Of a stretch of 50,278 bases of DNA, positions 1,992 to 49,617 are shown piece after piece. Both the position numbers and the translations under genes were made by a program. Origin of the DNA: an uncultured Oscillospiraceae bacterium. GTDB lineage: Bacteria > Bacillota > Clostridia > Oscillospirales > CAG-382. Positions within the stretch are counted from its first letter, which is position 1; every line of letters starts with the position of its first letter. The notes under the pieces are model-generated. The model was not told the DNA's origin and did no database searches. It saw only the letters and a list, made by a program, of their open reading frames with translations. Location of the stretch: positions 1 through 50,278 of the forward strand of contig CAZGJQ010000002.1 in NCBI GenBank assembly GCA_964525815.1. Reading direction: 5' to 3'.

Positions 1992-2016
1992 TTAATGACC
2001 TCCATTCATAATAGAA

Positions 2017-2415: not shown

Positions 2416-2433
2416 ATGGTGCTATTCCCTCCT

Positions 2434-15523: not shown

Positions 15524-15715
15524 GTGTTTTTTGCCTCCTTAAAATAATACAAAAAAGTTTTGGCGGCAAAGCAACGAACACTGCCTCGGGCGTTTCATAA
15601 TCGTCCCATAAAAAATGCTCTTTGCTCTCGCCCGATTGTCGGACATACTCGGCGGAAGTTACCTGCTTATTTTTTAGCAGCAATCTCCCGTTTCATCGCA
15701 CACCAAGCGAAAAAT

Positions 15716-15867: not shown

Positions 15868-17589
15868 ATGTATAAAAGATACAGAAGCTGGCTTGACAGC
15901 AAAATTATCGACGAGGAGACCAGAAAAGAGCTTATTTCGATTCAGAACGATGAGCTTGCGGTTAAGGAGCGCTTTGCGTTCCCGATGCAGTTCGGTACGG
16001 CGGGACTACGCAGCACCATGGCTGCGGGCATTTCTAAGATGAACATATACACCGTTGCGCATACCACCAGAGGTCTTGCCGAGCTTATTATAAAAAACAA
16101 TGCGCAGGAGCGAGGGGTTGCCATTGCCTTTGACTGCCGTAACAACTCCTCCCTGTTTGCGGAAACAGCGGCACGGGTGCTTGCCGCATATAGAGTCAGG
16201 GTGTTTCTGTTTGATTCTCTTCGTCCGACTCCGGAGCTATCCTTTGCGATTCGCTATCACGGCTGTATTGCCGGAATAAATATAACAGCCTCCCATAACC
16301 CCAAGGAATATAACGGGTATAAGGTATATTGGGAGGACGGTGCGCAGCTTCCGCCCGAGCATGCACGGGTGGTTTCGGACGCTGTGGAGGCTGCGGATAT
16401 ATTCGAGGATGTTAAATATGCCGATTTTGACAAGGCAAAGTCGGACGGTGTTATAAAAATAATAGGAGCCGAAACGGACGAGGCATATATAAAGGCGGTA
16501 CTGGACTGCCGAATATGTCCCGAAGCGACGAAAAAGCAGGGTGACAGCCTTAACGCTGTATACACTCCCCTGCACGGTACGGGATATAGGCTGATACCCG
16601 AGGTTCTGCGTCGTGCCGGAATTCCAAGGCTGAGAACAGTGGAGAGCCAGATGACACCGGACGGAAACTTCCCCACAGTCGTATCTCCTAATCCGGAAAG
16701 CTCAGAATGCTTTGAGCTTGCCGTTGAAATGATAAGAAGAGAAAGCATCGATTGCGAGCTTATACTCGCAACCGACCCGGACGGAGACCGCTTGGGTGTA
16801 ACTGTCAGAGATGATAAAGGAGAATTTTATACCCTGAGCGGCAACCAAATCGGCGCTGTTCTGATTGATTATATAATAAAGGGCAGAAGGCAGCAAAATT
16901 TACTGCCGGAAAATGCCTGTGCAATTAAGAGTGTGGTATCCGGTAACCTTTTTGACGCTATTTGCGACAGAGCCGGGGTTAAGCACCTTAATGTGCTTAC
17001 CGGATTTAAGTACATCGGAGAAAAAATTAAGGAGTTCGAGAAGGATAATTCCTATACCTTTATCTTTGGATACGAGGAGAGCCACGGCTATCTTTCGGGC
17101 GGGTATGTACGGGATAAGGATGCCGTTGCGGCGGCTCTGCTTGTAACCGAGGCGGCCTCCTATTACAAGGAGCGGGGCAAGACCCTTTACGGAGTTATAA
17201 AGAACTTATACAATGAGTACGGTTATTTTAAGGAAGCGGTGCTGAATATTGTCATAGACGGAATAGAGCCCATGACTGATATGTCGCGGAAAATGCACTA
17301 TCTACGGAACAGCGAGCTGAAAAGAATAGGAAACACCGAAATAACCGCCGTCAGGGATTATAAAAACGGCACCAGAACCTCCCTAAGAGACGGCAGTACT
17401 CAGCCCAGCGGACTGCCCGAAAGCGATATGCTCTATTTTGAGCTGTCCGACAGTACCGCAATTATAGTAAGACCCTCCGGCACCGAGCCGAAAATTAAGG
17501 TATATATTCTTGTCTGTGCCGAGTCCGAGGGTGAATGCGAACGAATGCTAAACGATTACAGGTCTGAAATGAAGCATATTTTAAAATAA
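15868..17589 (+). CDS. pgcA: Phosphoglucomutase / alpha-D-phosphohexomutase
   Basis: 573 aa with the phosphoserine loop GINITASHNPKEYNGYKVY, the Mg site ATDPDGDRLGV and a C-terminal RPSGTEPKIKVY. Confidence 0.9.
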   Translation: MYKRYRSWLDSKIIDEETRKELISIQNDELAVKERFAFPMQFGTAGLRSTMAAGISKMNIYTVAHTTRGLAELIIKNNAQERGVAIAFDCRNNSSLFAETAARVLAAYRVRVFLFDSLRPTPELSFAIRYHGCIAGINITASHNPKEYNGYKVYWEDGAQLPPEHARVVSDAVEAADIFEDVKYADFDKAKSDGVIKIIGAETDEAYIKAVLDCRICPEATKKQGDSLNAVYTPLHGTGYRLIPEVLRRAGIPRLRTVESQMTPDGNFPTVVSPNPESSECFELAVEMIRRESIDCELILATDPDGDRLGVTVRDDKGEFYTLSGNQIGAVLIDYIIKGRRQQNLLPENACAIKSVVSGNLFDAICDRAGVKHLNVLTGFKYIGEKIKEFEKDNSYTFIFGYEESHGYLSGGYVRDKDAVAAALLVTEAASYYKERGKTLYGVIKNLYNEYGYFKEAVLNIVIDGIEPMTDMSRKMHYLRNSELKRIGNTEITAVRDYKNGTRTSLRDGSTQPSGLPESDMLYFELSDSTAIIVRPSGTEPKIKVYILVCAESEGECERMLNDYRSEMKHILK

Positions 17590-17602
17590 AAGAGCCACAA
17601 AT

Positions 17603-17632
17603 AATTCCGTCGGGGTTAGCCTTGACGGAATT
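17603..17632. terminator. Hairpin between convergent pgcA and the Dlt-like operon
   Basis: AATTCCGTC (17603-17611) pairs with GACGGAATT (17624-17632) across a 12-nt loop. No clean U-tract on either strand. Confidence 0.4.
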
Positions 17633-17645
17633 CCCGCATATTGGG

Positions 17646-18161
17646 TTAATCGAGTATCGCCAAATAATTAATTCCGCTAACAATGTCCTCATCCACGATA
17701 AACTGCAGGGTGCTGTCCCCTGAGGTATAATTATAGAACCTACCCTCCGCTGTGTAGTCGTCCCCATAGGCTTCCAGCAGCTCCGAAAGGGAGCATCCGA
17801 TATAAACACCATTTTCGGCGGAAACGGTGTCGTCCAGCAGTACAACCGTAAAAATATAATCGGTATCGTTAAGCTCGTAGGTGCTTATCTCAAAGCTGCC
17901 ATAATTATAGTGCTTATCCATTCCCTGAAAAGCACAGCTCGGGGCTTCAAAATAATCCATGGGCTCTCCCAAGGCGGTAATAACGGATTCCGCTCTTGCG
18001 TTCATGCGAACCGTAATATTGTTGTATTTAAATGAGAACCCCTTGTCATTTTCGGCTTGTGATTCAATAGAATCCGTACCGGATAAGTCGGTGTCTGTTT
18101 TCTCACCGCAGCCCGACAACAGCAGCAGTACAATAAGAATTATAGCAATGATTCTCATCAT
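17646..18161 (-). CDS. Lipoprotein of unknown function (last gene of the Dlt-like operon)
   Basis: 171 aa with signal peptide and lipobox (LLLLSGC). Its start overlaps the upstream stop by 4 nt (ATGA), suggesting translational coupling. Confidence 0.75.
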   Translation of the reverse strand: MMRIIAIILIVLLLLSGCGEKTDTDLSGTDSIESQAENDKGFSFKYNNITVRMNARAESVITALGEPMDYFEAPSCAFQGMDKHYNYGSFEISTYELNDTDYIFTVVLLDDTVSAENGVYIGCSLSELLEAYGDDYTAEGRFYNYTSGDSTLQFIVDEDIVSGINYLAILD

Positions 18162-19249
18162 TCATTCTCCTTCCCGCCGTTCTTGACCGGCGAAGCTCCG
18201 TAGCTCTTCAGGTAGCCGTATTCCTCCAGCTCGTATTCCTGATGCTCCTTCATCTCGTAATAAAAGCGTACTTTCGGCTCCCAGATTCTTTGCAGCTCGG
18301 GCTTGTTACTGCGGTCGGTCAAGCCGAAGTCCTCGCTTAATATTCTTCCGAAGTAATCGGTCAGCTTTTCGGCACCGCTGAGGTTCAGGTGCATACCGGC
18401 GTCATAGGTGTCCGTTTTGTAATCAATTCCGATTTCAGCCGCAAGGCCGAGGAAGTTTATATAGGTAAGCTCATTTACCTGCGCAAACTTCTTAATCTGC
18501 TCATCCCACTCATCATACCAATGCGGGTATGCGCTGGGTGCTTTTATCAGAATCAGCTCTATGTCGTTCTCCTTACAGAGAGCCGTAATACGCTCAAGAT
18601 AGTAGTTATTCTTTTCTGAGAAATTGTAGTCAGCCAGTTCCTTCGGCTTGGGTAAATAGGACAGCGGCTTAATATCCGTTCTCATAAGGAAGCCGTTGTG
18701 GGAAACCTTTTCCTTCCCGAAAAGGTATTTAAAGTCCTCAGAGGTAAGCTCGCTCCATCTTGAGTGATACCTAAGAATAGGAAAAATATACGTTATAAAC
18801 TGCTCGTCCTCCAGCATGGAAGCTTTTATTGCGCTTATTTTTGACCCGGACAGCCGCATACCGTCCAGGGTAAGGCGGTTATATTCCTCCTTGTGCGGCT
18901 CACTGTTTTTCATTGCCAGCACATTGAAAACAACAGCATCCGGATGCTCATACTTAAGCGTTTCCTCAAGCAGATAATAGGATTGCCAAACAGACTGCTC
19001 TGCGCTCCCTCTGATATAGCTCGTTATACCGTAATTCTCCCATAGGGTAACGGGAGAAAAGTTGGAAAACACCTCGCAGTCCCCCAAAAAGATAACATCA
19101 TGATCCTTTTCCTGGTCGTAATACTCCTCCACAAGATTTCCTTCAAATATCGAAGTCATGTACTTGGGCATAAGCAATCTTTGAGTAACGGACAGGATTA
19201 TTACGGCAAGCAGTAATACCGACAGGTTAATTAATAGCTTTTTTTTCAT
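18158..19249 (-). CDS. DltD-like / SGNH-fold membrane-anchored protein
   Basis: Start taken at MKKKLLINLSVLLLAVIILSV (ATG 19249, GAGGA SD); the ORF-track start overlaps the MBOAT gene. It has an N-terminal anchor, a block-I-like FLGDCEVFS and a C-terminal YDAGMHLNLSG (DltD DTxHL-like). Sits after the MBOAT gene as dltD does. Confidence 0.7.
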   Translation of the reverse strand: MKKKLLINLSVLLLAVIILSVTQRLLMPKYMTSIFEGNLVEEYYDQEKDHDVIFLGDCEVFSNFSPVTLWENYGITSYIRGSAEQSVWQSYYLLEETLKYEHPDAVVFNVLAMKNSEPHKEEYNRLTLDGMRLSGSKISAIKASMLEDEQFITYIFPILRYHSRWSELTSEDFKYLFGKEKVSHNGFLMRTDIKPLSYLPKPKELADYNFSEKNNYYLERITALCKENDIELILIKAPSAYPHWYDEWDEQIKKFAQVNELTYINFLGLAAEIGIDYKTDTYDAGMHLNLSGAEKLTDYFGRILSEDFGLTDRSNKPELQRIWEPKVRFYYEMKEHQEYELEEYGYLKSYGASPVKNGGKENE

Positions 19250-19265
19250 CTCGGTATCCTCATTG

Positions 19266-20858
19266 TCAAAACTGACTGTAAATAAACTGCGATGCGTTAT
19301 AGCCCGCTCCGTAAGCACCGAATACTATTGTCGAAAAAAACAATGCGAAGTTGGTGCAATATCTTAGCATAAGAGGCTTTTTATACAGCCTCTCGCGAAC
19401 ACTTCCCGCTCTTTGCTTAAGGCTTACGGCTATCATTAGCGTTATCGAAAGAATAAGTACCATATAATCGGGCGTGGAAAGACCTAAATTAAGTAATCCC
19501 CCGCCAAGAACCTCCCGAATATTTAAGTGGGTGAACACCGTTCCGAACATTCTGAAGGTGGTTCCTACCCCCTGATAACAGTCAAGGGTGCGCAGCAGGC
19601 TCATAAGCCAGAAGGTACGGGCTACCTGAAACAGCCGGTACCAAAAGGTATTAGCTACGGAAAATCTTGAATGGAATCTCGAATACAATGGTGTGCACTC
19701 GTGAGAGGCCAATATAACAACCGCATTAAGCAAACCCCAGACAATAAAGTTCCAGGAGGAGCCGTGCCAGATTCCGGTGGAAAACCATACCACCATGGTC
19801 GCAATATATACCGGAACTCTTTTTCCGAGCGCATTGCCAAAGCGGCTCCTGCATTTTTTCGAAAGATTAAGTACGGGCTTGCTGACCGATATAGGATAAA
19901 ACAAATAGTCCTTGAACCAGGTTCCCAGCGTGATATGCCACCTTCTCCAGTATTCCGCAATGGACTTTGAGAAATACGGTCTGTTGAAGTTTTCGGGCAT
20001 GCGTACTCCCAGCATTTGCGAAATACCGAGTGCAATATCAATTCCTCCGCTAAAATCCGCATACAGCTCTATCGCATAAAAGAGCATACCAAGCACGACA
20101 TATATTCCCGTGTACATTTCCGGACTGCCCGTTATAGTGCTTACCGCCACCAGCAGACGGTCGGCTATTACGAGCTTCTTAAAAAAACCCCACAACACCC
20201 TCTGCAGCCCCAAGGAAGCATTCTTTCTGTCGTAGCTATGCTCCTCGAACAGTGTTTGCTTAAGCCGGTCAAAACGGCTTATCGGTCCCTGCACAAGCTG
20301 CGGAAAATAGGAAATGAACAAAGCCAGCCTGAGAATGCTTTTTTCGTAGCTATATTTACCCCTGTACACATCAATCAAATACCCCATGCTCTGAAAGGTA
20401 TAAAAGGATATGCCCAGCGGAACGGCAAGCTTTAGATAAGATAGCTCCCTTTCCGGATTGAACAGCCGTATAACGCTGTTTATATTGGATATGGAAAAAT
20501 CAATATATTTTAAAGCGAAAAGAACACCGAAGTTAATGAGCAGGCATATAATCAGCCATTTCTTCTGCCTTTTCTTCATTAATGCCTTGTATTCTTTGCC
20601 TTGTTCTCTTGAAATTGCGTCTTTTTTGCTCTCAAGATAATCCGCTTGCTCCTGCTTGGAACGGTTTATCCTATAGCTCGCATAAAAGGTGGTTGCGGTT
20701 GCGGCTAAAATATATATCAGGAATTTTATACCCAAAAAGGCATAAAAAACATAGCTTGCCGCCAGCAGCAGAAGCCATTGAAAACGCTTTGGTATCAAAT
20801 AATAAACGGCAAGCAGCACCGCAAAAAAAAGTATAAATCCGTATGAAGTAAACAGCAT
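19266..20858 (-). CDS. MBOAT-family membrane O-acyltransferase (AlgI/DltB type)
   Basis: 530 aa, polytopic, with the conserved His region EYWRRWHITLGTWFKDYLFYP. Confidence 0.9.
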   Translation of the reverse strand: MLFTSYGFILFFAVLLAVYYLIPKRFQWLLLLAASYVFYAFLGIKFLIYILAATATTFYASYRINRSKQEQADYLESKKDAISREQGKEYKALMKKRQKKWLIICLLINFGVLFALKYIDFSISNINSVIRLFNPERELSYLKLAVPLGISFYTFQSMGYLIDVYRGKYSYEKSILRLALFISYFPQLVQGPISRFDRLKQTLFEEHSYDRKNASLGLQRVLWGFFKKLVIADRLLVAVSTITGSPEMYTGIYVVLGMLFYAIELYADFSGGIDIALGISQMLGVRMPENFNRPYFSKSIAEYWRRWHITLGTWFKDYLFYPISVSKPVLNLSKKCRSRFGNALGKRVPVYIATMVVWFSTGIWHGSSWNFIVWGLLNAVVILASHECTPLYSRFHSRFSVANTFWYRLFQVARTFWLMSLLRTLDCYQGVGTTFRMFGTVFTHLNIREVLGGGLLNLGLSTPDYMVLILSITLMIAVSLKQRAGSVRERLYKKPLMLRYCTNFALFFSTIVFGAYGAGYNASQFIYSQF

Positions 20859-20876
20859 AAGGCTAACCCTTGTTCT

Positions 20877-21104
20877 TTATTTTTCCTGCAATCGCTCAAT
20901 CAGAGCATACATCGCCTTTGCGGAGTTAAAGTTCTCCGGTACTATTTCCTCAACCGGTATCATAACATCAAACTCGTCGTTTATCTCGGCGATAATGGTT
21001 ACTATATCAAAGGAATCAATGATGCTGTCGTCAATCAGCCTCTCACTGCTCCCGAAATCAACCTCGGGGTTCTGCTCGTTTAAAATCCTAATCAGTCTGT
21101 CCAT
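20877..21104 (-). CDS. DltC-like acyl/aminoacyl carrier protein
   Basis: About 75 aa. LIDDSIIDSFDIVTIIAEINDEFDVMIPVEE parallels DltC LLDSFGTVELLLAIENRFDI (Ser for phosphopantetheine). Start taken at MDRLIRIL (21104), overlapping the upstream stop by 17 nt. Confidence 0.85.
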   Translation of the reverse strand: MDRLIRILNEQNPEVDFGSSERLIDDSIIDSFDIVTIIAEINDEFDVMIPVEEIVPENFNSAKAMYALIERLQEK

Positions 21105-22623
21105 ATTTAATATCCTCACTGTTTTTGTAGCTCTCCATGAGGAGCCTGCGGTCTGTCTTCCCGCTCTGTGTCAGGGGCATTTTGCTTAAATGGTGTACAC
21201 AGTTCGGCTGCATATATCGTGGCAGCTTGTCCCTTAGCGCTCTTATTACCTGTTTTTCAACGGCCTCGCCCGTATAAAAAAGGATGATTTTTTTATTTAT
21301 ATCGTCAAAGTAGCAGCATGCATTACTTACTCCGTCAATCCAACCGGTAATTGCTTCTATCTCGCTCAGCTCAATACGATAGCCCATATGCTTAATCTGG
21401 TTATCCTTGCGTCCCGCAAAAATCAACTCTCCCCGATCGTTATATCTACCTAAGTCTCCTGTACGGTAAATAATCTCTGGATAGAGCCTATTAAGCGGAT
21501 TCTGCACAAACACCCTGCTTGTTTTTTCAAAATCACGGTAATAGCCCAGCGTCAACGAAGAGCCGCTAATACAAATTTCCCCCAGCTCACCCTGCCTTGG
21601 AATTCTGTCCTTCTCGTCCAGCAGTATGACTTCCGAATTGTTAAACGGCTTACCGATGGGTATTGTCTCATTGTCGCCAAACTCACGGTCCACCTCATAA
21701 TAACAGGACATTCCGGTAGCCTCTGTAGGTCCGTACAGGTTGAAGTATCTTGCTTTGGGTATATATTTTATAAAGACACGTAATTGCTTTGCGGGAAACA
21801 CCTCGCTGCCGAACGCAATAATCCTCAGATGCTCAGGCACTGAGCTGTCAAACGCATTATGCGCCGACAGCAAGGACAGAGCGGAAGCAGCCCAGCATAT
21901 CGTATTGATTTTATTTTTGTTCAGGAATTCTATCAGCCTAAGTGGAAACATAAACAGCTTTTTTGGAATAATGCAAGCGGTTGCCCCCGTTTTCAATGCG
22001 GAATAAACATCCTTTAAGTGCCCGTCCACATACAGCGGTGCCTGATTGCCGAAAACGGTATGGCTGTCAAAGCCCATAACCTCGCACAAATTGTCAATAT
22101 AATCTATAACCGAGCGATGACAGGCGATCACACCCTTGGGAACTCCGGTGGAGCCGGATGTAAGCACGATATACACCGGGTCGGTATCCTTTTGTGCAAT
22201 CCTTACATCATTTAACGTCTTATCATTAATGGATGTTTTTATAATAGCATCAAATTCATAGACCGCACCGTGTTTTTCTGCTTTAAAAATACGCTCCCTG
22301 CTATTGCCGCAAATTACGGCAGGAGAATCAAGGCCGCTCAGTATCTGCCCGATTCTTTGCTCGGGCATATCCACATCAACAGGCACATAATAACAGCCGG
22401 CATATAGCACACCCAAAAAAGCGGCTACTGTATTGGCGCTCTTTTCCATGAATACACAAACAGGCTGCCTTGTATGTCCATTATTCAATAAGAATGTACC
22501 GATAGCTCTTGCTCTTTCATGTAACTGCTTGAATGTCAGCTGCTCTGTCTCATCCGAAAAAGCATTTTTATTCGGGAATCGTTTAACCGTGTACTCCAGG
22601 TATTCCAATAAATTTTTCTGCAT
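21088..22623 (-). CDS. DltA-like stand-alone adenylation enzyme (amino acid--carrier protein ligase)
   Basis: 511 aa with adenylation motifs LTSGSTGVPKGV, NLYGPTEAT, YRTGDLG, GRKDNQIKHMGYRIELSEIE and PLTQSGKTDR. Confidence 0.88.
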   Translation of the reverse strand: MQKNLLEYLEYTVKRFPNKNAFSDETEQLTFKQLHERARAIGTFLLNNGHTRQPVCVFMEKSANTVAAFLGVLYAGCYYVPVDVDMPEQRIGQILSGLDSPAVICGNSRERIFKAEKHGAVYEFDAIIKTSINDKTLNDVRIAQKDTDPVYIVLTSGSTGVPKGVIACHRSVIDYIDNLCEVMGFDSHTVFGNQAPLYVDGHLKDVYSALKTGATACIIPKKLFMFPLRLIEFLNKNKINTICWAASALSLLSAHNAFDSSVPEHLRIIAFGSEVFPAKQLRVFIKYIPKARYFNLYGPTEATGMSCYYEVDREFGDNETIPIGKPFNNSEVILLDEKDRIPRQGELGEICISGSSLTLGYYRDFEKTSRVFVQNPLNRLYPEIIYRTGDLGRYNDRGELIFAGRKDNQIKHMGYRIELSEIEAITGWIDGVSNACCYFDDINKKIILFYTGEAVEKQVIRALRDKLPRYMQPNCVHHLSKMPLTQSGKTDRRLLMESYKNSEDIKYGQTD

Positions 22624-22659
22624 GGCTTCTGCCGATACCTTTCAAAGCGTTAATACTTA

Positions 22660-24273
22660 TCAGTCGGGAGTTCTCGGGTAAAGAGCCTTATCAAAGTCAT
22701 AATAGCCTCTGCCCCTTTCTTTGGATAGCTGTTCAAGCTCCGCATCGGTCATCATAAAGGTATCCTTGAAGTCGATATAACGGCAGCTGTCGAAATGGTA
22801 CCAGCCGTCTCCGCAGTTTATAAGGTTCCAGTAATGGTTAGTGCGTCCGCCCACCCTTGTTACCTTGATATTATCTATACCTGCTCGGGTAAGCAGAACC
22901 TCCGCCACCGAATAGAAGGTGAAGCAGTCCCCTCCTCCCCCCGTAATACCGAGATAGGCTTCCTTCAGCCAGTCGGTAGGCAGGGTATCGCTCTTATATA
23001 TCATATTGTTTCTTATCCATTTATAAATCGCATACGCCTTGTCTCTTTTTGTCATGCCATCAGTGATTATCTCTGAAAGTATCTCGTCCGCAAGCTCAAG
23101 CACTGCCTCCTCGGTAACAGTTTGCTCTATCACCGTAACCTTTATGGTTCTCTCGGAGGTGTTTCCGCTTTTATCTGTAGCCTTATAGGTTACGCTATAA
23201 ACTCCTTCCCTTCTGAGATTCACCTCGCTGCTGTCTATCTCGAGCTGAACTTCAGAGCTGCTGTTATCCGTAACCGATACATTGGTTCTGTAGGAAACGG
23301 TTTGACCTATATAAACAATCCTGTCTACCGCTCCCGTTATCACGGGCGGCTCGTTATCCTGACGAATGAATAACAGGGCCTTCTTTTCGGTCTTGTTTCC
23401 CGAGGAATCCTCAAGGATTACCGCTACCTCCTGCTGCCCTAATCTATTAAAATCGGGATCTTCCTTGTAATAGACTACAACCTCAGAAAAATCCGTTATA
23501 TCGACAACAAAGTCTCCTGCCTTAACGGAATCTCCTAACCATATTTCTCTGTCAATTACGCTGCAACTCGGAGGTGTTGTGTCAACAACCTCAACTGCCA
23601 CCGTAACCCTTTTATCACCAACCCTAAGCTCAACCTCATGAATTCCGGGTGCGGTTATATCAAGTTCGGAAATATCAGATTCAAAGGAAGCGTCATATAA
23701 ATCGTCCAGTAAAAAGTCTTTTGGAGCTATATCAAGCGCCACTCCCGCTTCAACCCTAACGGACTGTTTTATATTCAGAATAAATAAAACCGAATCAAGC
23801 TCTGTCCTGTTGTTCCCCGAATCCTCTAATACTACAGTTACCGCATGCTCGCCCGGTCTGGTGAAATCGGGTAACTCCTTAAATTCTACCCTTACCTCAC
23901 TTGCATCTATAATATTGGTAACAAACTCATCCGCCTCCAGAACCTTCCCCTTTGGAGAAATAACGCTTCTTGCGTCCGCTTGCGGAGGGATTGTGTCCAC
24001 CACTCTTATGGTTGAGCCGTAGATCTTCCCGTCCACCTTAATTTCTATATCGTAATATCCCGGGTTATTAAGGCTAATAGCAGAAATGTCGGTTACAAAA
24101 ACAGCTTCCTTATCATTGCCTGTAAGAAATTCGCTTGCCTGTACAGCCTGCCCTGCTTCAACTGTAACCGAATCCTTAACCACCGAATTAAACTCTTTGT
24201 ATAGTAACACCGCTCCGACCGCTAAAAGCACTATTATTTCCAACAATAAAATGGCTTTGTGAGATTTTTGCAT
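22660..24273 (-). CDS. Membrane-anchored Ig-repeat protein with a C-terminal transglutaminase-like cysteine protease core
   Basis: 537 aa. N-terminal TM (AILLLEIIVLLAVGAVLLY), an A-B-A-B repeat of beta-sandwich-like modules plus one more Ig-like module. Then GGGGDCFTF...NHYWN...WYHFDS, a Cys-His-Asp transglutaminase core. Confidence 0.85.
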   Translation of the reverse strand: MQKSHKAILLLEIIVLLAVGAVLLYKEFNSVVKDSVTVEAGQAVQASEFLTGNDKEAVFVTDISAISLNNPGYYDIEIKVDGKIYGSTIRVVDTIPPQADARSVISPKGKVLEADEFVTNIIDASEVRVEFKELPDFTRPGEHAVTVVLEDSGNNRTELDSVLFILNIKQSVRVEAGVALDIAPKDFLLDDLYDASFESDISELDITAPGIHEVELRVGDKRVTVAVEVVDTTPPSCSVIDREIWLGDSVKAGDFVVDITDFSEVVVYYKEDPDFNRLGQQEVAVILEDSSGNKTEKKALLFIRQDNEPPVITGAVDRIVYIGQTVSYRTNVSVTDNSSSEVQLEIDSSEVNLRREGVYSVTYKATDKSGNTSERTIKVTVIEQTVTEEAVLELADEILSEIITDGMTKRDKAYAIYKWIRNNMIYKSDTLPTDWLKEAYLGITGGGGDCFTFYSVAEVLLTRAGIDNIKVTRVGGRTNHYWNLINCGDGWYHFDSCRYIDFKDTFMMTDAELEQLSKERGRGYYDFDKALYPRTPD

Positions 24274-24300
24274 ATACTAACTTCTCCAATGATAAAAATG

Positions 24301-25398
24301 TCATATCCAGCACTGATCGTCCTTGATGTCCAAAACAAAGACCTTCTCCTGATCCTCCTTATACTTTGCCTGATGATACCTAAATATCATTTTATCATCT
24401 TCCAGCTTTCCGACTATTTCGATCTTACCCCGCTCGTTTGAAAGTACATAACGGAAGCATTTTTCCTGTCCGTTAAGCAGCTTTCTCGCGTCCGAAACAA
24501 TTTTGTATCCTTTTTTAAGGGGTATTTGAAATTGATTTTTTACAGCAGTAACCGGTCTGCATTGGAACACATAGTACGGTACAACTCCGGAGGCAGTCAG
24601 CTTGCTTATAAGCTTTGCCATTACAGACGGGCTGTCATTTACGCCCTTGAGCAGAACCGCCTGATTCTTTACAATTATACCGATGTTCTTCAAGGCGCTT
24701 ATTGCTTTTTTTGCTTCTTTGGTTATTTCTCTCGGATGATTGAACTGTGTTACAACATAGATGGTCTTTTTCTTTGAGTATTCCTGTAATATAGAGAGCA
24801 GCTCGCTGTCCTTATAGATTCTGGAAGGGAGTACGACCGGAGTCCTTGTACCAAACCTAATGAGATTAATATGGTCTATTTCCACAAGCTCCTTGAGGTA
24901 AGACTCGATTTTTTTATTACTGTTCAAAAAGGAATCTCCGCCGCTGATTAGAACATTATTTATCTCCTTGTGCTCCCTTATATAAGCGATAATGTCGTCG
25001 AAGTTCTTGTTAACCTCATCATCGCTTATACCGACCAATCTTTTTCTGAAGCAATGCCTGCAATAAACAGCGCATTTGTTTGTGGACAGAATAAGTGCTG
25101 TTTGCTTGTATTTATGCTGCAACCCCACCGTAACGGTGTTCGACAGCTCACCGCTCGTGTCCATGCTTCCGCTCAAATCGGTTTCCGCAATGCTGGGAAT
25201 GCACATTTTTTTTATTGAATCGTCCTCACTTTCATCGTCAATGAGGGACAGATAATACTTTGAGACAGACATCGGGTACAGCTCGATTATACGATTCAAC
25301 TTTTTTGCCTGCTCATTGGTTAAATCCCAATCAAAGAAATCCTTCAGCTCGTTTCCCGTGGTTACGTTTTCTTCTAATTCCTTCTTCCAATTTATCAC
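24301..25398 (-). CDS. KamA-family radical SAM 2,3-aminomutase (substrate unknown)
   Basis: 365 aa, GTG start after AGAGGTG. Radical SAM cluster CAVYCRHCFRKR, SAM region ISGGDS, YYVFQC block and a PLP-Lys candidate in NERGK. Confidence 0.9.
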   Translation of the reverse strand: MINWKKELEENVTTGNELKDFFDWDLTNEQAKKLNRIIELYPMSVSKYYLSLIDDESEDDSIKKMCIPSIAETDLSGSMDTSGELSNTVTVGLQHKYKQTALILSTNKCAVYCRHCFRKRLVGISDDEVNKNFDDIIAYIREHKEINNVLISGGDSFLNSNKKIESYLKELVEIDHINLIRFGTRTPVVLPSRIYKDSELLSILQEYSKKKTIYVVTQFNHPREITKEAKKAISALKNIGIIVKNQAVLLKGVNDSPSVMAKLISKLTASGVVPYYVFQCRPVTAVKNQFQIPLKKGYKIVSDARKLLNGQEKCFRYVLSNERGKIEIVGKLEDDKMIFRYHQAKYKEDQEKVFVLDIKDDQCWI

Positions 25399-25495
25399 TT
25401 AGCTTCACCTCTCTGATTATTTTACTTTCGTAATATTGATATTTAGCACAAAAAACCGCAGCTATTAGCCAATATAGTAACAAGGCTACCATATT

Positions 25496-25524
25496 ATTAT
25501 AAACAAATAGTATTATGTTGTCAA
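25496..25524 (-). promoter_or_regulatory. Consensus sigma-A promoter TTGACA-17-TATAAT for the KamA/Dlt-like operon
   Basis: On the minus strand: TTGACA (25524-25519), exactly 17 nt, TATAAT (25501-25496). About 90 nt upstream of the KamA GTG. Confidence 0.65.
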
Positions 25525-25560
25525 GTTCAATATACACTGTATGGTCCGGGATATGCTATA

Positions 25561-25587
25561 AGTCCGAAGCGTATGCCGCTCCGGACT
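25561..25587 (-). terminator. Stem-loop after the ABC operon (possible terminator)
   Basis: 11-bp stem with one G-U pair: AGTCCGAAGCG (25561-25571) with CGCTCCGGACT (25577-25587), 5-nt loop. Lies 33 nt after the permease stop and has only a weak U-rich tail. Confidence 0.4.
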
Positions 25588-25619
25588 CTGCGTATTATAT
25601 AGCTGTAAAAAAGCTGAGC

Positions 25620-26693
25620 TTAACCCGTGATACCGCTGCGTTCCACACCCTCTATAAGGGTTCTCTGCGCAAACAGATAGATTATTACCAAAGGTGCAAG
25701 TATCATAAGTCCGCAGGTGTTCCTGATAGCCGCTTCGTAAGTAACCTGAGCGGAATACTGCGTATCCAGTGACGAAGGAATAGAGACAATGTTTGGCAGC
25801 ATCAGATAATTGGTCTTATCTGTAAAGAACAGTCCGGTATAGAAGGTATCAGACCATTGCCATGCAAAGGAAAACATGAATATGGTAACCAGCATGGGTA
25901 AAGACATCGGTATAATTATTCTTATAAATGTCTTGATGATACCAGCTCCGTCAACATATGCCGCCTCCTCAAGCTCATCCGGCACGCCGTTGAAGTATTG
26001 CTTCATTATGTATATAAACAATCCGTTCTTAAATGCAAGACCGGTAAGCGACAATATACCAAGCGGCCAGTATGAGTTGAGCAGGTTCCCAATCGCGGGT
26101 GTTGCCTCGGTTGAGCCGAACAGTGTTTTAATACCTCCGACAATACCCGAGATATCAAAATACCTGAACTTCATAAACATGGAGAGCTGTAATGTATCAT
26201 GCGGGATAATCATTGTAAGAATGACAAACACAAACAGAATGCCCTTAAACCTGAACTTAAACTTTGAAAAACCGTATCCGACTATCGCACAGGTCAGCAT
26301 CTGACATACGCCCGCCATAACAGATAATGTTGTTGAATTAAACAACGCCTGAAAATATCTGTTGTCGTTAATAATCGCCTTGTAGGTATCCAATGTAGGA
26401 TACTTTGGAATCAGCTTAACCGTCTGATCGACAAAGTCCTCCCTGGCCATAAATGAACCCGCTATTTTAGAAATATAGGGAAACAGAATTACATAGGAAA
26501 TACCGATAAGCAATACCAGCCTGAAAATAATCCACACAAGCTTTTTTGCGAAATAAGGGGTCAGATACTTATATCTCAGACGCATTCCGAACGATGTCTT
26601 TTCCTGCGCTTTTATGCGTCTTAACGCTTCTTCTTTTCGCTGGAGCCTTTTCAGCTCCTTTTCCGCTCTTTTGTTAGAAAAAGTTGAATCCAT
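25620..26693 (-). CDS. Carbohydrate-type ABC transporter permease (MalG-like), pair 1
   Basis: 357 aa, EAA loop EEAAYVDGAGIIKTFIRIIIPMSLP, 6 predicted TM segments. Has an unusual ~45-aa charged N-terminal tail. Confidence 0.9.
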   Translation of the reverse strand: MDSTFSNKRAEKELKRLQRKEEALRRIKAQEKTSFGMRLRYKYLTPYFAKKLVWIIFRLVLLIGISYVILFPYISKIAGSFMAREDFVDQTVKLIPKYPTLDTYKAIINDNRYFQALFNSTTLSVMAGVCQMLTCAIVGYGFSKFKFRFKGILFVFVILTMIIPHDTLQLSMFMKFRYFDISGIVGGIKTLFGSTEATPAIGNLLNSYWPLGILSLTGLAFKNGLFIYIMKQYFNGVPDELEEAAYVDGAGIIKTFIRIIIPMSLPMLVTIFMFSFAWQWSDTFYTGLFFTDKTNYLMLPNIVSIPSSLDTQYSAQVTYEAAIRNTCGLMILAPLVIIYLFAQRTLIEGVERSGITG

Positions 26694-26708
26694 AATCCGC
26701 CCCCCCTT

Positions 26709-27719
26709 TTATGTTTCTCGTCTCTGGTAGAACACATAGGCCGACATTATTCCGCCTACAATTAATAGGATTAGTATTACTACCAGGAAGTACATCCATG
26801 ACATTGCAGTGGCTCGAACATTACCTTCCGCAGAACCGCTGTAAATATTCTTGATATAGGTCATAACCGTGTTTGATTTGGATGTAAAGGAGTCGATAAC
26901 GGTATAAATTGAGTTAACCAATATCATCGGGCTGATCATCGGGAAGGTTATCTTCCAGAAGGTCTCCCATGCGGAAGCTCCGTCAATATGACAGGACTCA
27001 TAGATGGCCGGAGATATAGACTGCAAGCCCGCCAGGAATATAAGCATCTGCACACCGGATTTGTTTACAATATTGTAAACGTTGTTAACCATATCCGTTG
27101 CATATGTTACCAGCCCTTCTCCCACCTTCATGCCACCCAGCAGTCTCGCAACATCCATCTGCGTTATTATCTGTGTTCCGGCATTGGCGGCGTCCATACC
27201 GCCGTCGCTTATAGTGGTAACGCTCTCCTGAGCCTGAGCTATGATGTTCTGAAGGTCAATGGTCTCGATAATTCCCGTAGACACTATAACAGGAATGAAG
27301 AATATGGCTCGAAATACTGCTCTTCCCTTCATCTTCTGGTTAAGCATAACCGCCATGAAAAGAGAGAATATAACAATTGCAGGGATGTTAAAGAGAAGAT
27401 CCTTAATGCTTCCTATAAGAACCTGCACATACTCTACATCCTCAAAAAGGGCGTATCTGTAATTTTCCCATCCGACAAATTCAAGAATATAGCCGCCGCC
27501 GCCTTGAATTCGTATCTTATTAAAGGAGAACCAAATCGATTCCACAATCATCGGAAGGTAAACAAGCGCAAACCCTATCAGAAAGGGAGCAATAAAGAGC
27601 CAGCCCATTCTTGATTTTTGCTTTTGCAGGGATAATGATTTACGCTGTTTCCTCGGTCTTTTTGGAACGGAGGGCATATCCTTTGTTGTCACTGCTTTTT
27701 TCTTTATAACCTTACTCAA
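26709..27719 (-). CDS. Carbohydrate-type ABC transporter permease (MalF-like), pair 1
   Basis: 336 aa, EAA loop ESCHIDGASAWETFWKITFPMISP. Has a Lys/Arg-rich N-terminal tail of about 40 aa. Confidence 0.9.
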   Translation of the reverse strand: MSKVIKKKAVTTKDMPSVPKRPRKQRKSLSLQKQKSRMGWLFIAPFLIGFALVYLPMIVESIWFSFNKIRIQGGGGYILEFVGWENYRYALFEDVEYVQVLIGSIKDLLFNIPAIVIFSLFMAVMLNQKMKGRAVFRAIFFIPVIVSTGIIETIDLQNIIAQAQESVTTISDGGMDAANAGTQIITQMDVARLLGGMKVGEGLVTYATDMVNNVYNIVNKSGVQMLIFLAGLQSISPAIYESCHIDGASAWETFWKITFPMISPMILVNSIYTVIDSFTSKSNTVMTYIKNIYSGSAEGNVRATAMSWMYFLVVILILLIVGGIMSAYVFYQRRET

Positions 27720-27722
27720 CTT

Positions 27723-30632
27723 TTATCCCTCCCCCACTATGCTGTAATTAAAATCAATCTTGCTTCCGTCACCGTCAACCTTAATAAAGCCTTCGGCGGG
27801 AACTATATGTGTTTTTCCTTTATCAGTGACGGTGTAATCCTTAAGCAAATAGTTAATATAGAAGGATTTACCGTTATCATAGGTAACCTTGGCTACCTTG
27901 TTCTGCGAATCAAGGAACTCATGCGCCACGATGGTGTGGTTTCTCAAATCCTTGAGTGCTTCGTTAAGCATCAGATAGGTTGTTACCATATCCTCAACCC
28001 AGATATTATATCTTACCGAATAATACTGATCAAGGTAGGAATATGTATACTGCTTTAACTCAGCTGTGTTATCAAAGGCGACCACGAAATACGGAGATGC
28101 TCCGTTTTCGATTGTTTTAAGTAATGAATACTGATAATCGCCTGCCAAATTAATTGCAGTTCCGGCATAATCCTTATATCCGTGTAATACCATTCCCATA
28201 AACGGAACAGTACCAGCCGAATGCCTGTATCTTGAGTCATCAAGCGGAATATCCAGTATATCGGTTACATACTTAAGGGTGTAGGCATTACCGCCCGAGA
28301 CCATCACCTTACCGTTATCCTTCTTGATTTGTTCAAGCAGCCTTGTTATAAGCTTCTTAGAGTCCTCTCTGTGCAGCGTATCCTTTGTGTTAAAGTCGGA
28401 GGATAAATAATTTCCGAGTGTGGAAACCGATATGGCTCCTACGTTATAATCCTTATATTCCTTGAAGGTGTCACTATAAAGTCGCTCCATAACATTCGGA
28501 GATATAACGCCCAGACTGTCATAAATAAAGCCTTGCCAGACAGGGTCATAAATCTTCTTTCCTGCAGCGCGGTTGTCTATGGTCCGGGTTAAGTCTTTGG
28601 AGCTATTAAAACCATCAAATGCTTTGTCCTTAAAGGCAAAGGAGTAATCAAAATCGGGATAAATGGTAACATTATTCTTATTGGCATAATCAAGGAGCTC
28701 AAGGAAACCCTCATCTCCTCCCAATACATCCACAATGTCCACGCCGGTTGGAACCAAGGGAATCAACCCCTCGTTTGCCCATCCGCTAAGCTTAAGCTTA
28801 ATGTTGTTAACACCCTTATCTTTTAGGAAGCTTAGTATTTCAATCGAATCCTTGAAGCTTGTAAGGGCTACCGTGGTCTGCACCGGTATACCTAAAACAT
28901 GCTTTATAGTTTCAAGCGCTCCGAGAGTCTCAATATAGAGAGGAATGTCCTCAGTCGTCTGCTCCTGCTCGGTAAGCACTCCGTTCTTAATAAGATAATC
29001 TCTGTAAACATTCGCCATTTCGGAATAGGAAATGTCATCGGACAAAATAAAGTATCTCAGCTTGAAGTCGCCTGTGTATTTACGCCTTGATTCAACCGTC
29101 CACATTGCATCGCTGCTGGAGGTTGCACTGATTCCTCCGCTGAGTGTATAGGAATCCTTAGGTCTCGGATTGAAGGAGGTATATACCGACGAAAACATAT
29201 GTACCTGTCCGCCATTCTCTACTGTTATCCTGGCAAGCGAATCACCCTCTTCAATAACTGCAAGGTAGCCTATCTTTAGGTCATGCATTACCGTCTCTAA
29301 GGAAGTGGTCTCCTCTCCGGTCTCCTCATCGATAACCGTGATTTCCTCTACGGTCGAATACTGATCCTTTACAATCTCGACAACGCCGAATACAGGTAAA
29401 CGCATTATTTCTCTATTTGCTCCGGATATTGTATGAAACGCATAATCCTGTCCGTAGAGCTGACTTGTCGTCCTAAAAGCGGTACCCCGTATGTTTTCAA
29501 AATCAATAAGCGTTCCCGAACCGTCGGGGGTAAATATATAACCGCTGTTATTTACATTACCCGCTCCCGCAAACGGCAGCAAGGTTACGTTAGATAGCTT
29601 GTAGGTTGACGAATCAAATCTAATATTACCTGCATTGCATCTGACCGAAAGACCAAGCTCATCTATAGTGTACTCAATAGCCAGCTTAAACAACGGCGGA
29701 GTCTTATCCATCGAAACATAGTCGGTTTCAGCATGATCCGCATCCATCTGGTCGAAGGAATAATCGGTATACAGCTTAACCATCCGCTCCAGCCTCATAA
29801 GCTCCTTTGGGGTTATATGCGGTTCGCATACATAAACAGGGAACCTTTCGCTGATCGGATATGCCTTTCTCATCTCTACCCTTGTTTTTTCCGACAGGGA
29901 GGTGTCGTTGGGATCCTTTAATTGATAAAATGCATCGAACTGTCTTGCATCTCTCGAAACAGGCGAATTTGCTGCTATCTGTTCCATAAGCGCAATAAGC
30001 TTTTCTTTCTCAATAAGTCTCGGTACGAGATACTCGATTTCTTCTCTTCCCAATGTATACTCGACCCTTACTCCGCTTCTTATAGGCTTAACCGTAATCT
30101 GATTGTTCCTTGCGGCATCCACAAAGGAGTTAAAGGAAAGGTCTGTATTCTGTTCGGAATAATCAACAATAACCTGTGAATACAGCCTGCTCTTAATTGA
30201 CTCTGAGGTAGCCGTACCGGTCATGGACTGACTTGACCCAATGTTGTATGGATTGGTGGAAAAATAAGCGTCATACTTATAAATTCCGTCCTCTCCAATC
30301 TCATATTCTCCGTCCTCATCCGGCTCTGTGAGCTGAAGAAGAACCATCTCACCAGTAATTTCATCTACATAAAGGGCAAATCCGTCCTTGACAAGCATAC
30401 AGGTCATCTGTGCGATAACATCGTTTCCGTTAATCCTGTCGTTTATGGATTTAAAGCCCGTAGACATATACGCGGGATACAGAGCATCCCAGATATCCTC
30501 TTCATCATCATCCTGTGCGGAATTACCGGATTCATCGGCAAGCGCCTCAATAGCCATTACCGAAACAAGCATTATAAGGCAGAGAAGAAGCGCCGTTAGT
30601 TTTTTAAATATACCTTTTTTCATACTTGACAC
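27723..30632 (-). CDS. Large secreted protein of unknown function (possible glycoside-hydrolase-like barrel in the C-terminal half)
   Basis: 969 aa, N-terminal signal peptide (LLLCLIMLVSVMAIEALA/DE), no recognisable catalytic motif by eye. Embedded between the permease pairs. Confidence 0.8.
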   Translation of the reverse strand: MSSMKKGIFKKLTALLLCLIMLVSVMAIEALADESGNSAQDDDEEDIWDALYPAYMSTGFKSINDRINGNDVIAQMTCMLVKDGFALYVDEITGEMVLLQLTEPDEDGEYEIGEDGIYKYDAYFSTNPYNIGSSQSMTGTATSESIKSRLYSQVIVDYSEQNTDLSFNSFVDAARNNQITVKPIRSGVRVEYTLGREEIEYLVPRLIEKEKLIALMEQIAANSPVSRDARQFDAFYQLKDPNDTSLSEKTRVEMRKAYPISERFPVYVCEPHITPKELMRLERMVKLYTDYSFDQMDADHAETDYVSMDKTPPLFKLAIEYTIDELGLSVRCNAGNIRFDSSTYKLSNVTLLPFAGAGNVNNSGYIFTPDGSGTLIDFENIRGTAFRTTSQLYGQDYAFHTISGANREIMRLPVFGVVEIVKDQYSTVEEITVIDEETGEETTSLETVMHDLKIGYLAVIEEGDSLARITVENGGQVHMFSSVYTSFNPRPKDSYTLSGGISATSSSDAMWTVESRRKYTGDFKLRYFILSDDISYSEMANVYRDYLIKNGVLTEQEQTTEDIPLYIETLGALETIKHVLGIPVQTTVALTSFKDSIEILSFLKDKGVNNIKLKLSGWANEGLIPLVPTGVDIVDVLGGDEGFLELLDYANKNNVTIYPDFDYSFAFKDKAFDGFNSSKDLTRTIDNRAAGKKIYDPVWQGFIYDSLGVISPNVMERLYSDTFKEYKDYNVGAISVSTLGNYLSSDFNTKDTLHREDSKKLITRLLEQIKKDNGKVMVSGGNAYTLKYVTDILDIPLDDSRYRHSAGTVPFMGMVLHGYKDYAGTAINLAGDYQYSLLKTIENGASPYFVVAFDNTAELKQYTYSYLDQYYSVRYNIWVEDMVTTYLMLNEALKDLRNHTIVAHEFLDSQNKVAKVTYDNGKSFYINYLLKDYTVTDKGKTHIVPAEGFIKVDGDGSKIDFNYSIVGEG

Positions 30633-30638
30633 TCCTTT

Positions 30639-32855: not shown

Positions 32856-32864
32856 GCTCCTTTC

Positions 32865-33785
32865 CTAATCCTTCATGCCGGAGGTTGACATGGTTTGAAT
32901 TACATTACTCTGTGCTATAACAAACACGGTAACCGGAACCACCATCATAACAACGGTTGCTGCGGCACCCACACCCGAACGGGCGATACCGGAGGTAACC
33001 AGCTGACCTATCGCATAGTTGAAGGTCTTGAGCTGCTCACTGTATATGAACAGGTTTCCACCCATGTTCCACAGGTCTCTGAATGAGAATATAACCAGAG
33101 TTACCCATGCAGGCTTTACCATAGGCATCGCTATCTTCCAAAAAATCTTGTTTTCGTTTGCACCCTCAATCCTCGCGCTCTCCAGCACCGCATCCGTAAC
33201 ATTAGTCTCCATAAACTGCTTCATCAGGTACAGACCGAAGGTGGTACAGAAGGCGGGAACAATTACCGCAAGATATGTATCAACCCAACCCAGCAGCGCC
33301 ATTGTTATGAAATTGGTTATGCCGGTTACGGTTGCGTTAAACATCAACGAGTAAATAACAATACTGAAGAGAAACTTTCTTCCCGGGAATGCAATCTTTG
33401 CGATTGCATATGCAGCATAGGAGGCAAACAGAACGTGTCCCGTAGTACCCACGGTGGAAATGAACACTGTGTTAAAAATGTATCTCGAAAAGGGTACCCA
33501 GGAGTCTCCCATCAGCCGGAATAAATCCTTGAAGTTCTTCATTGTGGGATTAACCACATAAAAGCGAGGCGGGAAAAACCAGAACTCGTCAAGCGGCTTA
33601 AGGGACTGTATAATGGCAAAGTACAAAGGAGCAGCCATTATTACACCGACTATTCCCAGTAAAACATATATACCGATGTCTCCGCCGGTGGAACGGTTAA
33701 TGGAGCGTCTGAAGGTATTGTGTGATTTGTTTCTCTGCCGTTTTTCTATGTAATTCTTGAATCTTTCTTTTATATTTACTGTCAT
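32865..33785 (-). CDS. Carbohydrate-type ABC transporter permease (MalG-like), pair 2
   Basis: 306 aa, EAA loop ESARIEGANENKIFWKIAMPMVKP. Confidence 0.92.
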   Translation of the reverse strand: MTVNIKERFKNYIEKRQRNKSHNTFRRSINRSTGGDIGIYVLLGIVGVIMAAPLYFAIIQSLKPLDEFWFFPPRFYVVNPTMKNFKDLFRLMGDSWVPFSRYIFNTVFISTVGTTGHVLFASYAAYAIAKIAFPGRKFLFSIVIYSLMFNATVTGITNFITMALLGWVDTYLAVIVPAFCTTFGLYLMKQFMETNVTDAVLESARIEGANENKIFWKIAMPMVKPAWVTLVIFSFRDLWNMGGNLFIYSEQLKTFNYAIGQLVTSGIARSGVGAAATVVMMVVPVTVFVIAQSNVIQTMSTSGMKD

Positions 33786-33788
33786 ATG

Positions 33789-34724: not shown

Positions 34725-34743
34725 TAACTATCTCCCCCTCCCC

Positions 34744-38115: not shown

Positions 38116-38216
38116 TCGTTTTTCCTCCCACGAAAAATATGCGAAAACATACACAAGTGCATCTGCAATGCGGAATGCAAACCGCAGACGAGATTGTGCA
38201 TTTATTTATGTGATTT

Positions 38217-49497: not shown

Positions 49498-49528
49498 AAG
49501 AAAAAACCGCTACATATCCTGTAGCGGT
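49498..49528 (-). terminator. Intrinsic terminator forming the riboswitch expression platform
   Basis: On the minus strand: ACCGCUACA-GGAUA-UGUAGCGGU (9-bp stem) followed by UUUUUU. Its 5' arm overlaps the 3' end of the aptamer (GGUUACCGCUAC). Confidence 0.8.
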
Positions 49529-49605: not shown

Positions 49606-49617
49606 TAATTTATTCTT

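Follow-up and report, generated by a model that had tools for sequence, protein, structure and literature searches.

A KamA-family gene joined to a Dlt-like carrier/MBOAT/SGNH cassette in one clade of Clostridia

The stretch of DNA analysed here, 50,278 nucleotides of contig CAZGJQ010000002.1 (assembly GCA_964525815.1, an uncultured Oscillospiraceae bacterium) and called the window below, carries on its minus strand a seven-gene operon in which the gene for a KamA-family radical S-adenosylmethionine (SAM) enzyme stands ahead of six others, encoding a transglutaminase-fold surface protein, an adenylating enzyme, a carrier protein, an MBOAT (membrane-bound O-acyltransferase), an SGNH-fold protein and a lipoprotein. 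These six genes recur as a cassette in Clostridia, and the KamA gene was found joined to it in a single clade, where the racemase gene seen in about half of the 80 related cassettes is absent and one residue of the adenylase substrate pocket is replaced.

The operon and its signals

The features of the operon, all on the minus strand, are given below in the order of transcription, with the evidence for each in brackets.

25496..25524, minus: sigma-70-type promoter, TTGACA-17-TATAAT (12/12 match)
25399..25495, minus: 5' leader, about 97 nt long, in which an 11-bp hairpin follows right after the -10 element (fold)
24301..25398, minus: KamA-family radical-SAM/pyridoxal phosphate (PLP) 2,3-aminomutase homologue of an uncharacterised subfamily, 365 aa (profile and alignment)
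22660..24273, minus: type-II membrane-anchored surface protein, 537 aa, with an N-terminal transmembrane helix, Ig-like repeats and a C-terminal transglutaminase-core (papain-like) domain (profiles)
21088..22623, minus: stand-alone amino-acid adenylating enzyme, DltA-like, 511 aa (AMP-binding)
20877..21104, minus: carrier protein, 75 aa, with the phosphopantetheine-attachment motif I-D-S-F (PP-binding)
19266..20858, minus: MBOAT, 530 aa, with the catalytic-His motif WRRWHIT and a fused C-terminal acyl-shuttle hexapeptide, FIYSQF (MBOAT domain)
18158..19249, minus: membrane-anchored SGNH-fold protein, 363 aa, with block I G-D-C-E and a block V region D-x-Y-D-x-G-x-H (fold and motifs)
17646..18161, minus: lipoprotein, 171 aa, with lipobox LSGC, the last gene of the cassette (lipobox and conserved position)
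17603..17632, minus: 9-bp hairpin with a T-rich tail, separating the operon from a convergent phosphoglucomutase gene (fold)

A sequence-only reading of this DNA had described seven co-directional genes behind a perfect promoter, and this description was borne out: all the open reading frames (ORFs) lie where they had been placed, and the 12/12 site at 25524-25496 is the sole perfect promoter match in a 10.5-kb scan (16500-27000). The spacings given in that reading, 27, 36, -17, 18, 16 and -4 nt, were also recovered when the ATG at 21104, which follows a GAGGA ribosome-binding site, was taken as the start of the carrier and that at 19249 as the start of the sixth gene. No terminator-like site was detected between the KamA and transglutaminase genes in the promoter/terminator scan. 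The leader RNA has an ordinary fold (z-score -1.0), and an Rfam gathering scan of its 97 nt detected no riboswitch or other leader element upstream of the KamA gene. The hairpin at 17603-17632, at which the unit had been said to end, is real (-16.7 kcal/mol), but its strength as a terminator is weak, with a z-score against shuffled sequences of just -1.7 and a 12-nt loop that falls outside the scan rules; it is a plausible, although weak, operon terminator.

The six-gene cassette and its relation to Dlt

Profiles and motifs confirmed the identities previously read for the KamA, transglutaminase, adenylase, carrier, MBOAT and lipoprotein genes, whereas the name "DltD-like" given to the sixth gene product held for fold and gene position only. 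The transglutaminase-fold protein matched PF01841 (31.4 bits vs 23) and Ig-like families, and its Cys450/His480/Asp495 triad was kept in 36-37 of 37 homologues. The adenylase, which matched PF00501 at 218 bits and TIGR01733 slightly below cutoff (308.9 vs 317.4), is of the non-ribosomal peptide synthetase (NRPS) type, having as nearest solved relatives the A domains of LgrA and GrsA, plus DltA, and it holds both Asp235 (D200 in Y-V-D-G) and the A10 Lys (SGK motif). The last residues of the MBOAT (PF03062, 59.9 bits) are ...SQFIYSQF, and an F-x-Y-x-x-F end is shared by 49 of 52 homologues from cassettes. With intergenic gaps of at most 36 nt, the operon leaves no room for a small DltX ORF, which would not be needed since the F-x-Y-x-x-F shuttle is fused to the MBOAT itself. 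For the lipoprotein, the single-sequence AlphaFold2 model was unusable (pLDDT 41).

The SGNH-fold protein of the window matched no DltD, Pfam or NCBIfam family, and a profile built from 28 sequences gave insignificant matches only when compared with PDB sequences. Lipase_GDSL_2 was weakly matched by 27 of the 28 homologues, and relatives bear the NCBI name "SGNH/GDSL hydrolase family protein". Its AlphaFold2 model (pLDDT 79.5, pTM 0.81) retrieved GDSL lipases, TesA, PatB and four DltD structures in a Foldseek search, with E values from 1e-4 to 1e-2 (about 1e-3 for DltD). Block I reads G-D-C-E in 43 of 43 homologues, with Cys at the expected position of Ser, so that the predicted nucleophile would be a cysteine. 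As modelled, the sixth gene product is thus a fold and position analogue of DltD and PatB, and no more. Many of its homologues are assigned to PF27429 in precomputed annotation.

Further cassettes were sought by scanning metagenomes with an adenylase alignment, which yielded 80 loci with identities of 47-58%; their gene content was then read by tblastn and ORF clustering. The order found was transglutaminase protein, an optional racemase, adenylase, carrier, MBOAT, SGNH protein and lipoprotein. Among the 43 loci with more than 3 kb of upstream sequence, the transglutaminase protein was present in 38 and a gene of about 237 aa adjoining the adenylase in 24; downstream, the carrier was found in 39, the MBOAT in 36, the SGNH protein in 35 and the lipoprotein in 32 of the 43 loci with more than 4.2 kb on that side. 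The 237-aa gene, located between those of the transglutaminase protein and the adenylase, encodes an Asp/Glu/hydantoin racemase (PF01177) that scored above the asp_race cutoff of TIGR00035 and at that of the cysteate racemase CuyB (203 and 194 bits vs 190), implying a D-amino acid as cargo in those relatives. In addition, an asparagine synthase (PF00733 plus GATase domains) was encoded beside the transglutaminase gene in four cassettes (L111, L131, L144 and L147), which may point to a free carboxyl group, of either the cargo or the acceptor, being amidated. No genes for synthesis of an acceptor were conserved near the surveyed cassettes.

The cassette is abundant in Clostridia from gut, rumen, termites and digesters, and its homologues at 55-60% identity run into the thousands; an E value of 1e-30 was passed by all 8000 adenylase candidates that were scored, and one of 1e-10 by 7067 SGNH homologues. 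Cultured carriers include Herbinix and Mobilitalea, in which the cassette is of the racemase type. At L158, a canonical lysine 2,3-aminomutase (LAM; YQCD, 412 aa, Zn domain) is encoded at 1879-2787 (minus), on the opposite strand and two genes away from a racemase-type cassette, probably by coincidence.

D-alanylation is the paradigm for surface-charge tuning and resistance to cationic peptides in Gram-positive bacteria, and the cassette resembles the DltABCD(X) system in that an adenylase would load a small carrier, an MBOAT would act across the membrane and a membrane-anchored SGNH-fold protein outside it, with a similar gene order. The earlier reading was right about this logic of adenylase, carrier, MBOAT and extracytoplasmic transferase, but membership of the Dlt families failed at all equivalog cutoffs: the adenylase scored 262.3 bits with the DltA model TIGR01734 (cutoff 559.85), the MBOAT 156.1 with the DltB model TIGR04091 (cutoff 375), and the carrier, a generic PP-binding one, 20.8 and 30.4 with the DltC models TIGR01688 and NF003464 (cutoffs 52.35 and 68). 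These wide misses bear on whether the operon could simply be the dlt operon of its host, performing canonical D-alanylation of teichoic acid. The order adenylase/carrier/MBOAT/SGNH-fold protein is that of dlt, the DltA, DltB and DltC models rank among the best NCBIfam matches, and Foldseek retrieves DltD structures. Nevertheless, we consider this explanation very improbable, because no DltD sequence family is matched, a 530-aa MBOAT with its own F-x-Y-x-x-F replaces DltB plus DltX, the nucleophile position holds Cys instead of Ser, the pocket of the adenylase carries a Lys at position 239, and the supply gene associated with the cassette encodes an Asp/Glu-type racemase, or KamA, and not an alanine racemase. 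Two conserved partners, the Ig/transglutaminase ectoprotein and the lipoprotein, further distinguish the cassette from DltABCD(X).

Modification of lipid A with glycine in Vibrio cholerae by AlmEFG is an earlier example of DltA/DltC-like enzymes that bring to the envelope an amino acid different from D-Ala; unlike the cassette, that system lies in a Gram-negative host, uses in AlmG a lipid A acyltransferase that is no MBOAT-SGNH pair, and includes neither aminomutase nor racemase. In the Dlt route, DltB takes D-Ala from DltC and places it on DltX, at the Tyr of its F-x-Y-x-x-F motif, from where DltD transfers it to lipoteichoic acid, and D-alanylation is treated as the sole MBOAT-SGNH pathway fed by a carrier protein; in other MBOAT-SGNH pairs the F-x-Y-x-x-F motif is fused to the MBOAT's C-terminus, and these "lack a similar carrier protein" (PMC12148441). 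PatA/PatB, AlgI/AlgJ/AlgX and WssH/WssI belong to the latter and share with the cassette a long MBOAT ending in F-x-Y-x-x-F and a separate SGNH-fold transferase, but they are fed by acetyl-CoA and have no carrier (PMC12148441). As the adenylase and the carrier of the cassette are both conserved, its donor would be an aminoacyl thioester and not acetyl-CoA. Judged from its genes, the cassette appears to be a hybrid, with a Dlt-like carrier feed, a PatA-like self-contained shuttle and an SGNH partner of the Cys type. We hold it highly probable that the six genes of this Clostridial cassette encode an aminoacyl transferase of the carrier-fed MBOAT-SGNH kind that differs from Dlt, and the cargo of the cassette is probably not that of D-alanylation. 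No description of the cassette, nor of a link between KamA and Dlt-like genes, was found in a literature search.

The KamA protein and its linkage to the cassette

The first gene product belongs to the KamA family, as judged by TIGR00238 (241.7 bits vs a cutoff of 199.2) and by the motif CAVYCRHC (CxxxCxxC), and lies under every equivalog cutoff tested (glutamate, lysine and arginine aminomutases and EpmB), with 263.7 bits for the glutamate 2,3-aminomutase model TIGR04368 (cutoff 650), 261 for AblA, the lysine 2,3-aminomutase (cutoff 525), and 198 for EpmB (cutoff 369). The protein was aligned to 2A5H and to the canonical LAM from L158. In the alignment to 2A5H it keeps the cluster cysteines, the equivalent of Arg134 and that of the PLP-binding Lys (K325), and 87-88 of 88 relatives share C109/C113/C116, R118 and K325. 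In contrast to LAM, it has Arg281 in place of Asp293 (Arg in 87 of 88 relatives) and Val in place of Asp330 (Val or Ile, thus hydrophobic, across the subfamily), and it lacks the Zn ligand Cys268 and the C-terminal Zn/tetramerisation domain. The roles of Asp293, Asp330, Arg134 and Lys337 in LAM were reportedly described by Lepore et al. in 2005.

With both lysine-binding aspartates replaced, by Arg and Val, and with such low equivalog scores, identities as EpmB or as lysine aminomutase were ruled out, and the grouping with EpmB-type enzymes that the sequence-only reading had named beforehand as speaking against its proposal was not what we found. Instead, the alignment places a basic residue in the distal pocket, which suggests a substrate with an anionic side chain. 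In the glutamate 2,3-aminomutase (Eam) described by Ruzicka and Frey in 2007, the residues at LAM positions 293 and 330 are reportedly Lys and Asn. Compared with Eam and LAM (KamA/AblA, 2A5H), the window protein shares the family, the CxxxCxxC motif, the carboxylate-binding Arg and the PLP Lys and, as we take it for Eam, the exchange of the lysine-binding Asp293 for a basic residue. It differs from Eam in having Arg and not Lys at 293 and a hydrophobic residue and not Asn at 330, and from both enzymes in its short length (365 aa), the missing Zn/tetramerisation domain and scores far under both equivalog cutoffs. The equivalog test for glutamate 2,3-aminomutase thus failed; the window protein may still resemble that enzyme in function.

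The genomic context of KamA was surveyed in one genome per species (80 loci, 51-72% identity) and extended by look-ups of further close homologues. The subfamily ranges over Lachnospiraceae, Oscillospiraceae, Peptostreptococcaceae, Sedimentibacter, Tissierellia and Erysipelotrichales. Among the 80 loci, seven-gene synteny was seen in L001 alone, the closest one (72% identity), while Dlt-like genes within 10 kb and conserved neighbours were both lacking at the other 79. The look-ups of close homologues gave the following contexts.

KamA P0003 (69% identity), loci L164 / L168: followed by the full cassette
KamA P0004 (67%), loci L162 / L163: followed by the full cassette
KamA P0005 (66%), locus L161: followed by the full cassette
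KamA P0006 (67%): stand-alone
KamA P0010 (66%): stand-alone
KamA P0014 (65%): stand-alone

The loci that have the KamA gene directly upstream of the cassette are thus the window, L001, L161, L162/L163 and L164/L168, which makes the window and four or five other lineages. The gap between the KamA and transglutaminase genes is at most 50 nt at all of these loci, which differ in their flanks (V-ATPase, SatD/DUF3307 or Amidase_6), and the linkage is kept across KamA identities of 65-77%. The linked KamA proteins are monophyletic in a neighbour-joining tree (bootstrap 93/100), as are the linked adenylases (support 100/100), and a racemase gene is absent from every KamA-linked locus. Locus L168 repeats the layout of the window, with a promoter of perfect 12/12 match some 70 nt upstream of KamA, seven genes and a hairpin after the lipoprotein gene. 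In both the window (25471-25495, minus) and L168 (3482-3500, plus), a short hairpin starts right after the -10 element of the perfect promoter, perhaps to stabilise the 5' end or to serve as a regulatory stem. At the P0004 locus, the NCBI metagenome-assembled copy L162 (12842-16414) has a broken adenylase and MBOAT (calls of 94 and 423 aa), with the near-identical Logan contig L163 intact; this fragmentation is either an assembly error or a decaying copy.

The co-conservation of KamA with the Dlt-like genes, raised in the sequence-only reading, was therefore found in the nearest relatives, despite their changed flanks, but not in the wider survey, in which 82 of 88 sampled KamA relatives stand alone, in variable contexts and without conserved neighbours. 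A general KamA-Dlt association in Clostridia was rejected, with Dlt-like genes at 0/79 other KamA loci and a KamA of the window type at 0/80 other cassettes; the only two matches among those cassettes were the canonical LAM at L158 and a 31% fragment at L110. As the subfamily is mostly stand-alone and the cassette mostly without KamA, the linkage is best read as a single clade-specific event and not as a general KamA-Dlt system. Both its single origin and the stand-alone habit of the subfamily would fit a KamA gene that is a hitch-hiker, i.e., a relocated housekeeping gene, maybe sharing a strong promoter, beside a cassette whose cargo, probably a D-amino acid, is unchanged. Against this stand the survival of the linkage over that range of KamA identities while both flanks changed, the short gaps, the fact that in two lineages the promoter lies upstream of KamA, and the lack of a racemase gene at every linked locus.

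Substrate pocket, candidate cargo and surroundings

The Stachelhaus positions of the adenylase were assigned via the A4/A5 motifs and a HMMER alignment to LgrA, giving for the window D235, G236, K239, S278, I299, F301, L322, G330 and M331 plus the A10 Lys, and D-A-K-S-I/V-F-L-G-M as the consensus code of the cassette family. Position 236 is Gly in 6/6 KamA-linked adenylases and Ala in all other cassettes (78/78; 77/77 of those covered at this column in the tree alignment), and G236 is one of just four clade-specific residues among the 511 positions of the adenylase. Within the 120 closest database homologues, D-G was present in seven, and 5/5 of those with visible upstream sequence are KamA-linked; the nearest homologue without this Gly, P0126, belongs to a transglutaminase-racemase-adenylase locus. 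Substitutions specific to the linked clade at near-invariant sites were also found in the carrier (A56V), the MBOAT (T270S) and the SGNH protein (Q107E and Q142H).

We infer the chemical steps, the amino acid and the acceptor of a pathway as follows. KamA would isomerise a free L-alpha-amino acid, probably an acidic one, to its beta-isomer, our best guess being L-Glu to beta-Glu, and the G236 adenylase would activate this beta-amino acid and thioesterify it onto the 75-aa carrier. The MBOAT would then load the acyl group onto its own C-terminal shuttle, at the Tyr of FIYSQF, on the outer face of the membrane, from where the SGNH-fold protein would take it on the block-I Cys and deliver it to an acceptor in the envelope. 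The Ig/transglutaminase ectoenzyme and the lipoprotein would be extracytoplasmic partners, with acceptor recognition, further transfer or trimming as possible roles. Beta-glutamate may be viewed as aspartate with one CH2 added between the amino carbon and the activated carboxyl, and a D-Asp-type pocket (D235 plus K239) could take it once A236G makes room beside D235; being prochiral, beta-Glu would make a racemase unnecessary. A comparable start is known from macrolactam and NRPS pathways, for example the one in which the Glu aminomutase IdnL4 makes a beta-amino acid that a dedicated adenylase ligates to a stand-alone carrier (PMC11284099). That system shares with the window the set of aminomutase, selective adenylase and stand-alone carrier protein, and differs in that its carrier feeds a cytoplasmic polyketide synthase/NRPS line, whereas the carrier of the window is proposed to feed MBOAT-SGNH surface export. 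The pocket change and the absence of the racemase suggest, and do not prove, a beta-amino acid as the cargo, and Arg281, Lys239, the racemase scoring as asp_race/CuyB and the loci with asparagine synthase are compatible with an acidic one. Taken as a whole, our preferred model, in which the racemase-to-aminomutase swap changes the cargo, with beta-glutamate as a possibility, seems to us evenly balanced between right and wrong.

Several observations weigh against the beta-amino-acid model, beyond the stand-alone state of most KamA relatives. The KamA linkage, the loss of the racemase and G236 all trace to one clade and amount effectively to one evolutionary event, not to repeated co-variation. 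About 40% of the cassettes have neither a racemase nor KamA nearby. Gly at position 236 also occurs in an A domain for an alpha-amino acid, LgrA domain 1 (F-D-G-S), and is therefore not diagnostic of beta-substrates, and the role of Lys239 and Arg281 as carboxylate binders is one that we assume by analogy with Glu-activating NRPS codes and glutamate 2,3-aminomutase. Cassette-linked KamA copies share the same residue with stand-alone ones at all active-site positions, so that KamA may keep an unrelated role. Finally, a control confined to the adenylase tree showed a change likewise fixed at a near-invariant site in 7 of 33 comparable clades; the number of changes in the linked clade thus carries no weight, only the location of G236 in the pocket being notable, and a coordinated adaptation of all the cargo-handling proteins was rejected as an interpretation.

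The unchanged active site, the unremarkable number of substitutions and the many cassettes without an adjacent supply gene add to the case for KamA as a hitch-hiker. What it leaves unexplained is that the lone changed near-invariant site of the adenylase is a residue of the substrate pocket beside the amino-binding Asp, and we regard it as unlikely, albeit a serious alternative to the beta-amino-acid model.

A different cargo or order of steps would also be conceivable, with KamA acting on a carrier-tethered aminoacyl group, or on a route to a non-acidic beta-amino acid, and the product, made through the Cys enzymes, perhaps being an amide formed with peptidoglycan, with an amino sugar or with a surface protein, in place of an ester on a polymer resembling teichoic acid. 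Two extracytoplasmic enzymes with Cys nucleophiles are predicted (from the G-D-C-E of the SGNH protein and the triad of the transglutaminase), thioester intermediates commonly feed amine acceptors, and the lack of conserved acceptor-synthesis genes near the cassettes leaves room for such products. However, the known KamA-family enzymes act on free amino acids, and the pattern of Arg281, Lys239, Asp-type racemase and asparagine synthase fits a free amino acid of acidic type, which makes this alternative improbable.

If the beta-amino-acid model holds, the operon would represent, as we tentatively put forward, the first beta-aminoacylation (possibly beta-glutamylation) of a bacterial envelope, with an aminomutase replacing an Asp-type racemase. 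It would do so on a widespread and hitherto unrecognised Clostridial route, the second carrier-fed MBOAT-SGNH one besides Dlt, with Cys for Ser in the SGNH protein, a fused Tyr shuttle and an extra transglutaminase-fold ectoenzyme, most members of which would install acidic D-amino acids and not the cationic D-Ala. With an acidic D- or beta-amino acid as cargo, the surface would gain negative or zwitterionic, not positive, charge, affecting the interactions of major gut anaerobes with phages, hosts and antimicrobials. The racemase-to-aminomutase swap would moreover provide a natural variant pair for studying how cargo specificity is set and, if true, a physiological role for a large orphan KamA subfamily.

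The genes flanking the operon are unrelated to it: upstream lie those for ABC permeases, a DUF5696 protein and an NHL/Yip1 protein, downstream the convergent phosphoglucomutase gene and the S10/spc ribosomal operon. The upstream side (25620-38154, minus) is an unusual string in which four ABC permease genes are interleaved with those for three proteins, one of 969 aa with DUF5696, one of 738 aa that is an NHL-repeat/Yip1 membrane protein and one of 1136 aa without a Pfam match. Farther away, a c-di-GMP-I riboswitch (RF01051, 70 bits vs a gathering threshold of 35) at 49523-49607 (minus) precedes a 347-aa ORF (48427-49470) that has no Pfam match. On the other side, an S10-Clostridia ribosomal-protein leader (RF03136, 40.4 bits) at 15628-15704 (minus) precedes the ribosomal operon (L3, L4, L2 ... 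SecY), which places the seven-gene operon in the core chromosome of a member of the Clostridia.

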